This document shows, piece after piece, positions 46,842-53,198 of a stretch of 64,000 nucleotides of DNA. A model generated the notes under the pieces. The model was not told the origin of the DNA, made no database searches, and saw nothing but the letters and a program-made list of their open reading frames with translations. This stretch comes from an uncultured Chloroflexia bacterium. GTDB taxonomy: Bacteria > Chloroflexota > Limnocylindria > Limnocylindrales > CSP1-4. Both the position numbers and the translations under genes were made by a program. Numbering within the stretch: position 1 is the stretch's first letter; every line of letters starts with the position of its first letter. Where the stretch lies: positions 64,001 through 128,000 of the forward strand of contig CAVYIM010000009.1 in the NCBI GenBank assembly GCA_963768655.1, in the 5' to 3' direction.

Positions 46842-48203
46842 ATGACCTTCGCCGCTCGGACCTGGGGCCGAATGTCCCTGACCGCCCGCCTGGCCGCGAT
46901 CCTCGTGCCGCTGGCCGTGCTGCTGGCCATAGCCACCGTCGTGGGCATCGTGTTCATCCTGCCGCCCACGATCGATTTCCTGGGGGCGAACCTGCCGCTG
47001 GTTCGGTTCGTCGTCGCGGTCGTCGGCATCCTCGTCCTGACCATCCCGACTGCGTTCGTGCTGATCTACATGGAGCTCAAAGTCATCGCCCGCATGAACC
47101 TGCGAGTCGGCCCCAACAGGATCGGACCGTGGGGCGCGGCAATGAGCCTTCTCCACGGTTTCAAGGTTCTCTCCAAGGAGGACTTCGCCCCCACCGGCGC
47201 CGATATCGCGGTCTTCACGCTGGCCCCGGTGGTCACCTTCCTGGCCAGCGTCATGACCCTGCTCGTCATCCCGTTCGCGCCCGGCATCTTCGGCCAGGAC
47301 CTCAACATCGGCGTGCTCTATTTCTTCGCCATGGGCGGTCTCGCCGTCCTTGGTCTGCTCATGGCGGGCTGGGCGAGCTTCAACAAGTACTCGCTGCTGG
47401 GCGGGCTCCGCTCAGCGGCGCAGATCGTCAGCTACGAGATTCCGCTGACCATCTCCGTCGTGGGCGTGGTCCTGCTCGCGGGCACGATGAGCATGAACCA
47501 CATCGTTCTGTCCCAGTCGGGCTCCGCGCTGGACTGGTTCGCCCTCAAGCAACCCCTCGCGGTGCTGATCTTCTTCATCGCCGCCACGGCCGAGGCCAAC
47601 CGCACCCCGTTCGACATGACCGAGGCCGACTCTGAGATCGTCGCCGGATTTGCCACTGAGTACTCGGGGATGCGCTTCGGCTTCTTCTTCTTCGCCGAGT
47701 ACGTGAACGTCTTCATCATCTCGGCCCTCATGGTGACGCTCTTCTTCGGTGGCTGGACGGCGCCGTTCAACTGGCCCTGGCCGTACAACCTGAACTGGCT
47801 CGACGCCTCGGGCATCGGCATCCTCTGGATCGGGATCGCGCTGGTCGTCCTGTTCGTTGCCACGGACATCCTCGGCGCGGCGATCTGGCTGATCGGGGGC
47901 CGAGAGTGGAGCAGCCCGGCGGCCTTCGGCCTCGGCTTCCTGATCGCAGGCGCCGGCATCACCGCCGCAGTCGGCCTGGCCTGCTTCGTCGCCTTCGGCT
48001 GGGTCCAGGGCATCTTCTGGTTCATGGCCAAGACCTACGTCTTCGTCTTCACCTTCGTCTGGATGCGAGGAACCCTGCCGCGCGTCCGGGTGGATCAGCT
48101 GATGGGCTTCGCCTGGAAATGGCTCCTGCCCGCCTCGCTCCTGAACCTGTTCGTGACGGCGGCCGCAATCATCATCCTCAACCAACCGGTGACCCCGCGA
48201 TGA
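46842..48203 (+). CDS. nuoH: NADH-quinone oxidoreductase subunit H (enlarged)
   Basis: RVGPNRIGPWG, KED, NKYSLLGGLRSAAQIVSYE, NRTPFDMTEADSEIVAGFATEYSG, RGTLPRVRVDQLM. Confidence 0.96.
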   Translation: MTFAARTWGRMSLTARLAAILVPLAVLLAIATVVGIVFILPPTIDFLGANLPLVRFVVAVVGILVLTIPTAFVLIYMELKVIARMNLRVGPNRIGPWGAAMSLLHGFKVLSKEDFAPTGADIAVFTLAPVVTFLASVMTLLVIPFAPGIFGQDLNIGVLYFFAMGGLAVLGLLMAGWASFNKYSLLGGLRSAAQIVSYEIPLTISVVGVVLLAGTMSMNHIVLSQSGSALDWFALKQPLAVLIFFIAATAEANRTPFDMTEADSEIVAGFATEYSGMRFGFFFFAEYVNVFIISALMVTLFFGGWTAPFNWPWPYNLNWLDASGIGILWIGIALVVLFVATDILGAAIWLIGGREWSSPAAFGLGFLIAGAGITAAVGLACFVAFGWVQGIFWFMAKTYVFVFTFVWMRGTLPRVRVDQLMGFAWKWLLPASLLNLFVTAAAIIILNQPVTPR

Positions 48204-50417: not shown

Positions 50418-53198
50418 ATGCGAGACACCCATCTCCGCCCCAGCCCGAGCGCCCCGCCGGCGACACCGCCGGCCGGCAAACCCGCCCTGCCCGCCCCGCC
50501 CGCGATGCCCGCCAGCAGGCTCCCGGCGAATCCGCCGATAGTCGCGCCGGGACCCCTGCCGGCCCTGCCTGCCGCCCCGTCCGTGAAGGGCCTGCGGCCC
50601 GCCGCCAACGAGGGACCGGTGTGGAATCGCAGGGCCGGACGCCCCGACAGCCGCCCGGACGCAATGGCGCCGCGCGACACGGTTACGCCACTCGACGACT
50701 CGCCTGCCGAGCGTCTGCTCACGACCCAGGCTCCGCAGCGGCCGCTGTCGACGTCCACAATCAAGCTCACGATCGACGACCGCGAGGTCACCGGGACCGA
50801 GGGGCAAACGATCCTCGAGGTCTGCCGGGCCAACGGCACCGACGTCCCCACGCTCTGCTACGAGCCCAAGCTGCCCGGCTTCGGCGCCTGCCGGATGTGC
50901 GTCGTCGAGGTCGACGGCGACGATCATCCGACGATCTCGTGCGCCCGCGAAGCGGCGGCCGGCATGGTCGTCCGAACCCAGACCGACGAGGTTCGCCGGC
51001 TGCGCCGGACCAACCTGGAGCTGATCTTCAGCGACCACAACGCCTATTGCCTGCCGCCCTGCCAGAACAAGTGCCCGAGCCACATCGACATCCCGGGCTT
51101 CCTGAAGGCCAATGCCGAGGGCAAGTTCCGCGAGTCGGCGCGCATCTTCAAGCGCACCATCCCGTTCCCTTCGATCCTGGGCCGCGTCTGCCCGGCTCCG
51201 TGCGAGGAGCACTGCCGCCGCGACGAGGTGGACGAGGCCATCGCCATCCGGGATAGCCATCGCTACGCCGGCGACATCGTGCTGGCCGCGCAGAAGGACG
51301 GCATCGAACCGCCTCTGCCGTTCGAGACACAGCCCCGGACCGGCAAGCGCGTCGCGATCGTCGGCTCCGGACCGGCCGGCATGGCGGCGGCCTACTACCT
51401 GCAGCTCTCCGGCCACGACACGACCGTCTTCGAGCGCGACCCCGAGCCCGGTGGAATGCTCCGCTACGGCATCCCGGAGTACCGCCTGCCCAAGAAGGAC
51501 GTTCTCGAGCCCGAGTACGAGGCGGTCTGGCGCCTCGGCGCGAAGCTGGAGGTCAACCAGGCCCTGGGTCGCGACTTCAGCCTGGACGACCTGCGCGCGC
51601 GGGGCTTCGACGCCACGATCGTCGCCACCGGCTGCTACGACACCAACAAGCTCGGCGTCGAGAACGAGAACGCAGTCGGGGTCATCGACGGCCTGGAGTA
51701 CCTCAAGATCGCCACTCTGGGCCTGCCGTATCCGGGCCACGCCGGCAGCCGCGTCGTCGTCATCGGCGGCGGCTTCACCGCCATGGACTGCATGCGCACC
51801 TCCGTCCGCCAGGGCGCGAAGGAGGTCACCCTCGTCTACCGCCGTGACATGAAAGACATGCCGGCCGCCAGCGAGGTCCACGAGGGGCTCGAGGAAGGGG
51901 CTCGAGCCATCTTCCAGGCCGGCCCGACGAGGGTCATCGTCAACGCCAAGAATCGCGTCACCGGCGTCGAGTTCATCCGCATGCGCCCCGGCGCGCCGGA
52001 CGCCTCCGGCCGCCGCCGCCCCGAGCCCGCGCCCGGGACCGAGTTCGTGATCAAGTGCGACCGCGTCCTGCTCGCCATCGGCCAGGGGCCCGATTTGTCG
52101 TGGATAGGGCCCGGCAACGAAGGCATCGAGGCGGCCCGGTACAGGCTCAAGGCCGACGCGGTCACGTTCGAGACGGGCCGGCCCGGCGTGTTCGGCACCG
52201 GCGACGTGCGCATCGGGGCCGCGACCGTGGTCCAGGCCATCGCCGAGGGACGGCGCTGCGCCTACGCCGTGGACGCGTTCTTGCGCGGCACGGACCTCTC
52301 CGAGCTGCGCTCACGCGAGACCCTCGCCGAGCCCGAGCTCAAGTTCCTCTCGATCACGCCCTACACCGACGAGCCCAAGGAACCCCGTCACCGTCTGGCG
52401 GCAATGCCGGCGGAGGAGCGCAACAAGAGCTACGTCGAGTACGAGATCCCCTATACCCAGACCGAGGTCATGGCCGAGTCGAGCCGCTGCCTGCAGTGCA
52501 CCTGCGAGGCCATCGGCTACTGCGACCTGCGCAACCTGGGCCTGGAGTACGGGACCACGCTCGAAACGCTGGAGCCTCGGCACAACGAAGGCGCCGGCTA
52601 TCGCAGCGTGACGGAGAACCGCTTCACCGGCGCCAACCACGACTACATCCGCGACGACAGCCACGCCTTCATCCTGCGCGAGCCGTCGCGCTGCATCGAC
52701 TGCGGCCGCTGCGCCGCGGTCTGCGCCGACGTCGTCGGCGCCGCCTGCTACGACTTCATGCGCATCGGCTTCGACACGCTCGTGACGACGCCGCTCGACA
52801 TGAGCCTCAACGACACGCCGTGCGTCTCCTGCGGTCGCTGCGCCGAGACGTGCCCTACCGGCGCGCTCATGCTCAAGCCGCGCGTCTTGGAGAAGTACGA
52901 CGTCGACGAGAGCCGCTGCATCCTGTGCGGCATCTGCGTGGATGCCTGCCCGTACGACGCGCTGCGCGGCGGGCCCGACAACGAGCTGGCCCACACCGAC
53001 CGGTCCGGGCCGATGATCGACCTGATCGGCCTGGCCGCCATGGCCGGCGAAACCGAAGTGACCTACATCCAGCGCGAACGAGACTGGCTCGCCCACGCCG
53101 TGGCCGACGGTCGACTCGCGAACCCCGGGGCGGAGCTGCCGGCGCTGCCGCCCGCGCTCGCCACTCCCGGCGACGGAAATGGAGCCGAGCGCCAGTGA
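50418..53198 (+). CDS. NuoG/HydA-like Fe-S domain + GltD-like FAD/NAD(P)H oxidoreductase + 2x[4Fe-4S] + C-terminal half of NuoI
   Basis: TLCY..[8 protein letters not shown]..ISC (2Fe-2S); [42 protein letters not shown], VYRR (GltD); three CxxCxxCxxxC motifs, the last in a NuoI-like context. Start uncertain (50418 or 50664). Confidence 0.9.
   Translation: [926 protein letters not shown]

Follow-up and report, generated by a model that had tools for sequence, protein, structure and literature searches.

A nuoI gene apparently split around a three-gene Nfn/Stn-type cassette in the complex I operon of Limnocylindria (Chloroflexota)

Few enzymes of bioenergetics have been studied as thoroughly as complex I, and each of its core subunits is regarded as a fixed unit. 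How, then, is a complex I (nuo) operon to be read in which the gene after nuoH begins as nuoI, the gene before nuoJ ends as nuoI, and the two NuoI cysteine motifs are encoded 4.5 kb apart? The operon in question lies on the + strand, at 43.8-59.1 kb of a window of 64,000 nt (the whole stretch of DNA analysed, i.e. positions 64,001 to 128,000 of contig CAVYIM010000009.1), in a metagenome-assembled genome (GCA_963768655.1; 88.6 % complete, 9 contigs) of an uncultured Limnocylindrales (Chloroflexota) bacterium from soil or peat. Our reading, to which we give a probability of roughly 0.7, is that it encodes the only complex I of this bacterium, that an NAD(P)H-oxidising cassette of the Nfn/Stn type (Bfu family) sits inside nuoI, that the iron-sulphur clusters N6a and N6b would be shared between two polypeptides, and that electrons would enter by a path from NADPH. 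The order of the operon is nuoA-B-C-D-H, NuoI N-half fused to a NuoE-like part, NuoF-like, 2Fe-2S/GltD-like/ferredoxin protein fused to the NuoI C-half, nuoJ-K-L-M-N, with three genes (here genes 1, 2 and 3) between nuoH and nuoJ, the parts of which are as follows.

48200..48484, + strand: NuoI N-half (gene 1 residues 1-95); TIGR01971 positions 1-66; NF004536 positions 14-91 of 180, E 4.5e-16
48485..49015, + strand: linker (conserved) and NuoE-like (BfuC-like) domain of gene 1; PF01257, residues 125-258
49012..50409, + strand: gene 2, NuoF-like (BfuB-like); PF01512, PF10589, PF10531
50418..52880, + strand: body of gene 3, NfnA/StnC-like; NF009454, residues 113-767, E 1.9e-159
52881..53198, + strand: end of gene 3, NuoI C-half (residues 822-863) and C-terminal tail; TIGR01971 positions 71-112

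The start of gene 1 (271 aa, 48200-49015) overlaps the stop of nuoH (ATGA), that of gene 2 (465 aa, 49012-50409) overlaps the stop of gene 1 likewise, and gene 3 (926 aa) runs from an ATG at 50418, 8 nt past the gene 2 stop, to 53198; this last start is uncertain, a GTG at 50352 and an ATG at 50664 being alternatives. The two halves hold the position of NuoI, the N-half starting at the nuoH stop and the C-half ending 25 nt before nuoJ. The N-terminus of gene 3 (50418-50730) possibly consists of about 100 Pro/Ala-rich residues, which are missing in most other genera and kept in one close relative (L032).

Do these two ends amount to one NuoI? As the sequence-only reading of this DNA had claimed, the gene after nuoH starts as NuoI: its N-terminus is NuoI-like (TIQYPE, RFRG), and a single CxxCxxCxxxCP motif (C56-P67, positions 48365-48400) and part of the inter-motif loop follow, before the protein switches to a NuoE-type thioredoxin-like domain (PF01257, E 2.7e-19), which, apart from weak single Fer4 matches, is the only Pfam domain in gene 1. 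The same reading had placed the second half at the end of the large NuoG/GltD-like protein before nuoJ and had counted three CxxCxxCxxxC motifs in that protein; both claims hold, the motifs starting at C759, C802 and C834 and the last of them (C834-P845) lying at 52917-52952. Of the two CxxCxxCxxxCP motifs expected of NuoI in one polypeptide, gene 1 therefore carries the first and the end of gene 3 the second. Complementary coverage of the NuoI model TIGR01971 had been set beforehand as a check, and this is what was obtained: gene 1 residues 12-78 match profile positions 1-66 of 121 (E 6.3e-14, 51.6 bits) and gene 3 residues 822-863 match positions 71-112 (E 1.6e-12, 47.1 bits), without overlap. 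Both halves also align to four canonical NuoI from other Chloroflexota genomes, the N-half over the N-terminus, the first motif and part of the loop, and the C-half from the strand preceding the second motif (KYDVDESRC versus (R/T)YEINMLRC of canonical NuoI), which puts the break in the inter-motif loop. Among PDB sequences, gene 1 residues 9-76 match NDUFS8/NuoI chains. In the N-half motif, the four Cys and the Pro show no variation among the 19 proteins aligned, nor do C834, C837, C840, C844 and P845 among the 15 aligned for the C-half. That NuoI is split in this way, and that both pieces belong to the complex I operon, we regard as very probable.

The other genes of the operon supply the Q-module and membrane subunits, NuoA, B, C, D, H, J, K, L, M and N all being present, and nuoD is directly followed by nuoH, with no nuoE, nuoF or nuoG in between. 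NuoA, B, C, D, H, J and K were named by NCBIfam models, and NuoL, M and N from inspection of the translations and BLAST of related loci.

43792..44148, + strand: nuoA; NCBIfam NF005839 NuoA, E 6.2e-26
44418..44981, + strand: nuoB; TIGR01957 NuoB, 209.7 bits against a cut-off of 142.7; start uncertain, ORF open from 44028
44985..45542, + strand: nuoC; TIGR01961 NuoC family, E 8.7e-32
45650..46831, + strand: nuoD; NF008974 and TIGR01962, E 1e-124 to 1e-129; ATG start by eye
46842..48203, + strand: nuoH; NuoH models, E about 1e-93 to 1e-96, in two stretches
53224..53772, + strand: nuoJ; NF005168, E 1.7e-35
53769..54080, + strand: nuoK; NF004322, E 1.5e-33; GTG start by eye
54088-56055, + strand: nuoL
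56066-57589, + strand: nuoM
57602-59062, + strand: nuoN

The nuoB translation shows the CC...C...CP ligands of cluster N2; the frame upstream of its conserved core (44028-44417) holds Ala/Gly-rich repeats (GASAAT...), possibly an N-terminal extension of NuoB. NuoH has 453 aa, and homologues from the second lineage described below do without about residues 311-352, suggesting a lineage-specific insertion. Directly downstream of nuoN and convergent with it, the minus strand (59067-60842) carries ORFs of 159 aa and 425 aa, which by eye look like an IscU/SufU-type Fe-S scaffold and a cysteine desulfurase.

Is a complete NuoI encoded elsewhere, which the sequence-only reading had named as evidence that would speak against it? 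A search of the genome's own contigs (88.6 % complete) with TIGR01971 gave 16 matches, none above the cut-off; the best two were the two halves themselves, and the others were generic ferredoxin domains. Canonical NuoG was not found in the genome, TIGR01973 giving two N-terminal partial matches only, and there is one NuoD locus only. The complex I described here is thus the only one found in this genome. A separate N-module was considered and rejected, the other NuoE- and NuoF-like genes, on contig C4 only, belonging to a HydABC-type [FeFe]-hydrogenase cluster. There, at about 111.2-116.3 kb of the contig (L133:4209-9329, minus strand), NuoE-like and NuoF-like genes adjoin a HydA-type [FeFe]-hydrogenase (Fe_hyd_lg_C, E 4e-91) in an arrangement resembling a soluble hydrogenase cluster of the HydABC type; 2 TGA codons fell within the tblastn match to its NuoF-like gene.

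The split-NuoI layout is shared throughout the class Limnocylindria. All 24 genomes of the genus and all 16 of a second family (genomes of about 1.1 Mb) encode the fusion protein, a few copies being interrupted by a contig end or a change of frame. In an evenly drawn set of 401 Chloroflexota genomes, with a match defined as E <= 1e-20 to the fusion-protein query, 44 genomes matched when the source genome is counted, i.e. 43 of the 45 other genomes of the class, and none of the 355 sampled Chloroflexota outside Limnocylindria did. By family, the query matched 23/23 (f1), 4/4 (f2), 16/16 (f3) and 0/2 (f4) genomes; both f4 genomes carry the NuoI halves about 4 kb apart, as found by HMM, and diverged copies of all three genes. 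The three-gene order was the same in all 14 genomes examined (12 fetched loci of other genera or families and the two of f4). In one of these relatives (L023; G062:C7) the gene 3 homologue lies in two overlapping frames, with BLAST matches to residues 105-382 and 380-873, which could be due to a frameshift, a sequencing error or a true split. Among species-representative genomes, at least 563 loci encode a relative; the best 80 of these are labelled, as deposited, Chloroflexi/Chloroflexota, Limnocylindria/-ales/-us or 'uncultured Chloroflexia', and further 'uncultured Anaerolineaceae' (4), Candidatus Aquidulcis (1) and 'uncultured bacterium' (1). Candidatus Limnocylindrales is another source name of relatives, and the 10 clusters of distant fusion proteins that were looked up gave only Limnocylindria or Chloroflexi organism names. 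Relatives occur in peat, permafrost and wetland runs and in freshwater assemblies.

The junctions themselves were also bridged by contigs from sequencing runs, a check which came out in part: both are spanned by contigs of about 90 % identity from four runs (two DNA and two RNA-library runs), such as 48396-48697, 48404-48844, 48318-48558, 48311-48493 and 52791-52979, the last two in X17. These contigs come from relatives and not from this strain, half of the sampled words being reached in no run (best share 0.16). Depth cannot rank the genes. The contigs from RNA libraries are a weak hint of expression, as such libraries may hold DNA. Selection was estimated as dN/dS (the ratio of non-synonymous to synonymous substitution rates), pairwise against eight related loci by NG86, which is rough at this G+C content:

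NuoI N-half: 0.05-0.24
NuoI C-half: 0.05-0.20
GltD core: 0.10-0.33
NuoE-like domain: 0.10-0.50
NuoF-like gene: 0.16-0.46
NuoD: 0.07-0.25
NuoH, NuoJ and NuoL: 0.11-0.48

All parts of the split complex I are under purifying selection, and these ranges indicate that the NuoE- and NuoF-like parts are maintained and not decaying.

The same two junctions recur in a second lineage, so that the check proposed by the sequence-only reading, conservation of the junctions in relatives, was answered both within the class and outside it. A profile search of 1.84 billion representatives gave 87 proteins at E <= 1e-30; among 150 matches listed, six (P0124, P0125, P0130, P0158, P0160 and P0181) span the NuoI N-half and the NuoE-like part, and P0158 retains all four Cys of the 2Fe-2S site. 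The label Thermoleophilia for this lineage comes from a single named protein (P0426, Thermoleophilia bacterium, 69 % identity) among the 120 relatives of P0158 listed. A metagenome scan gave 111 relatives, of which the best 80 were retained, and all 10 long loci examined read nuoA-B-C-D-H, I'-E, F, GltD-I'', J-K-L, with I' and I'' for the two NuoI halves. At one of them (L135) the NuoI model is split too (positions 2-66 and 69-115), the NuoE part scores above the equivalog cut-off (147 versus 141 bits), and the NuoF-like protein carries CNGDEGDPG and SCGKCVPC, with a 2Fe-2S thioredoxin-like domain at its N-terminus and a dicluster domain at its C-terminus. The bifurcating core is thus intact in the second lineage and trimmed in Limnocylindria. 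The spacing at the C-side junction is identical in both (CP, 20 residues, C), which fits a single origin of the layout. At another second-lineage locus (L209:6922-12177), the NuoF-like part and the GltD/NuoI-C-half part share one stop-to-stop frame of 1752 aa and may be fused genes 2 and 3.

What, then, was inserted? The sequence-only reading had proposed an E-F-G'-type module in the inter-motif loop; the insertion into the loop stands, while the module is not a canonical NuoE-F-G but one of the Nfn/Stn type (Bfu family) with a trimmed core. Judged by sequence comparison, the closest solved structures of all three cassette proteins appear to be the soluble Bfu-type transhydrogenases NfnABC and StnABC. 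Gene 3 residues 115-844 (730 residues) align to 9bov_A residues 4-699 (E 2.8e-161), followed by 9n5u_A and 8oh5_C; gene 2 covers residues 114-526 of the 584 in 9bov_B (E 3.3e-100), with HydB-type chains scoring nearly as well; and the NuoE-like part of gene 1 has its best PDB matches in 7p5h_C, 8oh5_A and 9bov_C. Gene 3 comprises a 2Fe-2S domain, an FAD/NAD(P)H domain of the GltD type that carries two 4Fe-4S clusters, and a 2x[4Fe-4S] ferredoxin domain of the HydA/NuoG type, i.e. the domain set of a Bfu large subunit (Pfam Fer2_4, Fer4_20, Pyr_redox_2 and Fer4_Nqo3), including the His-ligated 4Fe-4S cluster. Among 15 aligned gene 3 homologues, each cluster ligand is conserved wherever a row covers it, as are [14 protein letters not shown] and VYRR of the NAD(P)H fold. 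The alignment to 9bov_A (1178 aa) stops at residue 699, where its Fdh-like domain begins, and gene 3 ends 82 residues later. The Fdh-like (molybdopterin-fold) C-terminal domain of the Bfu large subunit is thus absent, and NuoI-like sequence stands in its place, with 20 residues between the CP of the last ferredoxin motif and the start of the C-half motif.

In the two smaller proteins the cofactor sites are reduced. The NuoE-like domain of gene 1 retains only the first Cys pair of its 2Fe-2S (C1) site; in two families, none or one Cys of the second pair is present, and f4 is without any Cys. Gene 2 is without the N-terminal thioredoxin-like and the C-terminal 2x[4Fe-4S] (B3, B4) domains, with no Pfam Fer4 or 2Fe-2S_thioredx match, and its B1/N3 motif reads ACGKTIPC, the second Cys being replaced by Thr; among 14 relatives this Cys is Thr or Ala in 10 and kept in four (L025, L027, L035 and L036). 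A motif of the CNADEGDPG type, which matters for FMN and NADH binding in complex I, is replaced by VHAYQSDPA. The flavobicluster B1-FMN-C1, as defined in PMC11829005 (this and the other papers cited were seen in part and are cited for those parts), is therefore not found with full Cys ligation in genes 1 and 2. Since the C1 ligands, the ferredoxin-binding domain and one B1 Cys are lost, electron bifurcation appears unlikely in this lineage.

Taken together, these alignments suggest that a three-gene Nfn/Stn-type cassette sits inside the nuoI of an 11-subunit-type complex I core. The N-half, with the NuoH-contacting N-terminus and the first Cys motif, is fused to the NuoE-like first protein of the cassette, and the C-half, with the second Cys motif and the 'FEL' strand, to its NfnA/StnC-like third protein, where it takes the place of the inactive Fdh-like domain. 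Both halves would refold into one 2[4Fe-4S] NuoI domain, so that N6a and N6b are each ligated by Cys of both polypeptides and the input module is tied to the Q-module. This sharing we infer from the standard 2[4Fe-4S] ferredoxin fold and from one weak complex prediction. It is argued for by the fact that motifs 1 and 2 of gene 3 form a full two-cluster domain in solved homologues (9bov_A, 8oh5_C); with these paired, one orphan motif each is left in gene 3 and gene 1, both with NuoI-specific flanks.

The path of the electrons can be proposed by comparison. In the NfnABC of Caldicellulosiruptor saccharolyticus (Csac), the cofactor path is given as FAD-A7-A6-A3-A2-A1-[B1-FMN-C1]-B3-B4, and A2-A4-A5, leading into the inactive Fdh-like domain, as a dead-end branch (PMC11829005); the C1/C2 clusters of Stn are likewise described as a dead-end branch (PMC10482914). 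As the alignment to 9bov_A ends at the start of the Fdh-like domain and the NuoI C-half follows, the simplest reading is that the former dead end leads into N6a/N6b and N2. Electrons would pass from NADPH to the FAD of the GltD-like domain, its two 4Fe-4S clusters, the His-ligated cluster and the clusters of the ferredoxin domain to N6a/N6b, and from there to N2 (NuoB) and quinone, the A2-A4-A5 side branch of soluble Nfn/Stn becoming the exit. The NuoE/NuoF-like pair of Limnocylindria might serve as a scaffold or as a second, NADH-oxidising entry. That NADPH is the main donor, as the homology of gene 3 suggests, is to our mind an evenly balanced question. Tentatively, and with slightly less than even confidence, we propose a proton-pumping NADPH:quinone oxidoreductase that arose from the operon of a soluble bifurcating transhydrogenase inside nuoI, with cross-ligated N6a/N6b and the dead-end branch as the main outlet, and in which the intact, ferredoxin-reducing core of the second lineage could couple NADPH, NADH and ferredoxin to quinone reduction and pumping.

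Several observations weigh against parts of this reading. Both halves stay below the TIGR01971 cut-off of 113.05 bits. Whether the tail of gene 3 is better matched by generic ferredoxins, another outcome named beforehand as adverse, received a divided answer: when the last 110 aa were scanned alone, NuoI/NdhI models made up eight of the ten best families, with matches extending past the Cys motif into ...[11 protein letters not shown], and in the PDB the four top whole-sequence scores belonged to polyferredoxins (FwdF, MvhB). The latter scores are summed repeats of <=20 bits each, and complex I subunit I chains (NuoI, NDUFS8, NdhI) fill most of the next rows with about 47 bits over a single stretch. 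As a ranking by summed score does not single out NuoI, we relied on single-stretch scores, by which NuoI/NDUFS8 chains are the best matches (e.g. 8qby_I residues 93-140), and on the NCBIfam scan. Furthermore, Pfam Fer4_7, Fer4_9 and Fer4_21 cover gene 3 residues 798-849, reading motifs 2 and 3 as one ferredoxin domain; A7 has His in place of its Lys ligand (K170 in 9bov_A) in all gene 3 rows covering that column; gene 2 keeps the five NADH contacts given in PMC11829005 (G156, F159, K164, E274 and F294, the last as Tyr); and the assignment of NADPH as donor is drawn from homology alone. Finally, when the two halves were predicted as a complex (residues 735-880 of gene 3 and 1-105 of gene 1, custom alignments), the outcome supported their pairing weakly and may reflect memory of solved NuoI structures: it scored 0.39 (runs 0.40, 0.37 and 0.39; best of three controls 0.00), with runs agreeing in >=83 % of contacts and a partner pLDDT of >=66, where, of 157 solved complexes and 215 mismatched pairs, 116 and 2 respectively attain the mark for such predictions, and 18 of the former and both of the latter do so at 0.60 or under.

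Which of these points could carry a different explanation? The first concerns the donor: NADH, alone or together with NADPH, could feed the enzyme from the NuoF-like FMN site via B1 and the 2Fe-2S cluster while the GltD arm adds NADPH, giving a dual-input complex I or a membrane-bound transhydrogenase. Gene 2 does retain the GLRGRGGAGFP loop, the Lys of KW, GEET and PP(Y)P; selection on it is purifying (0.16-0.46); the four relatives named above keep all B1 Cys; and the Bfu core is complete in the second lineage. However, this genome has VHAYQSDPA and a Thr at the second B1 Cys, and the CNADEGDPG-type motif varies among the families of the class, whereas the GltD motifs do not. NADH input is unlikely, though a serious contender.

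The next concerns the clusters. Motifs 2 and 3 of gene 3 could form an intramolecular 2[4Fe-4S] domain, with no cluster shared and the N-half reduced to a one-motif remnant anchoring the module to NuoH. The Pfam dicluster models over residues 798-849, the ferredoxin-typical spacing between these motifs (CP, 20 residues, C) and the weak complex prediction all speak for it. Yet motifs 1 and 2 already make a two-cluster domain in 9bov_A and 8oh5_C, which have no third motif, and pairing 2 with 3 would leave motif 1 and the N-half motif as orphans of different origin. The flanks of the third motif are, moreover, NuoI-specific (YDVDESRC before, ...[11 protein letters not shown] after; profile positions 71-113), and a mere remnant is hard to square with four Cys invariant in 19 of 19 proteins and a dN/dS of 0.05-0.24. 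We therefore consider this arrangement improbable, and shared N6a/N6b the better account of the four motifs.

Still less probable is that the enzyme works in reverse, the proton motive force driving quinol-dependent NADP+ reduction for biosynthetic NADPH. Complex I is reversible in principle, and the soluble relatives are described as reversible transhydrogenases (PMC10482914, PMC11829005); but the sequence holds no sign of direction, and as this is the sole complex I found in the genome, forward respiration would be left without a pump. An assembly artefact or a decaying pseudogene arrangement, for which only the origin of the window in a metagenome-assembled genome of nine contigs could be cited, is refuted by the same junctions in at least 563 loci of other genomes, in 10 of 10 second-lineage metagenome loci and in contigs from four runs, with all frames open and dN/dS well under 1.

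A core Fe-S subunit of complex I is thus very probably cut by a three-gene insertion, with both halves under strong selection across a whole bacterial class. If the reading of shared N6a/N6b clusters and an NADPH-fed Nfn/Stn-type cassette is true, this would be a natural case of Fe-S clusters shared between polypeptides as an assembly device and of a soluble bifurcating enzyme wired to a membrane pump, and it would point to a likely entry of NADPH into the respiratory chain. The two lineages, one with a full and one with a trimmed Bfu core, lend themselves to asking which of its parts are needed for what. As the sequence-only reading had supposed, the architecture seems to be new to print: neither a split NuoI nor an Nfn-type module within nuoI was found described in the literature covered, in which the figures and supplements of PMC9304861 were not included.

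How does the system compare with those already known? Like canonical NuoI/Nqo9/NDUFS8 (TYKY), the carrier of N6a and N6b, the two halves together show TxxYPE and RFRG of the NuoH-contacting N-terminus and two CxxCxxCxxxCP motifs flanked as in NuoI, and they adjoin nuoH on one side and nuoJ on the other; they differ in that the motifs lie on two polypeptides, each fused to other domains and below the family cut-off. Canonical 14-subunit complex I (nuoA-N) differs by having nuoE-F-G between nuoD and nuoH and a NuoG with a molybdopterin-like domain; many Chloroflexi genomes appear to lack only NuoG (PMC4453560). The 11-subunit complex I-like enzymes (PMC3144371, PMC4758237) share the order nuoA-B-C-D-H-I-J-K-L-M-N, with no nuoEFG between D and H, but their NuoI is intact. 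In mbx-like operons a gltD-related flavoprotein substitutes for NuoI (PMC4758237); NuoI is replaced there and not retained as two halves.

Of published ideas, the closest to this design is 'Nuo-Bfu', the predicted 14-subunit complex I-like enzymes of Schut et al. 2022 (PMC9304861), proton-pumping quinone reductases which likewise have a Bfu-type module in the middle of a nuo cluster for electron input. There, BfuABC replaces NuoEFG, in Deferribacteres, Proteobacteria, Planctomycetes and Nitrospirae; the main text of that paper does not contain 'NuoI', and the passages seen give no GltD domain or split subunit for Nuo-Bfu.

Closest to the cassette itself are NfnABC of C. saccharolyticus (Nfn-Bfu; 9bov/9bp5), the archaeal Nfn-Bfu (9n5u) and StnABC of Sporomusa ovata (8oh5), which have the same three-gene order of a NuoE-like, a NuoF-like and a large 2Fe-2S/GltD/ferredoxin subunit, and the same FAD/NAD(P)H motifs and GltD-domain cluster ligands, save for the A7 Lys that is His in gene 3. 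They are soluble tetramers bifurcating electrons to NAD+ and ferredoxin, whereas the cassette has the NuoI C-half in place of the Fdh-like domain, no N- and C-terminal BfuB domains, only two C1 ligands left and one B1 Cys lost. The branch that is described as a non-functional remnant in Nfn and Stn (PMC11829005, PMC10482914) would, in the cassette enzyme, be the outlet.

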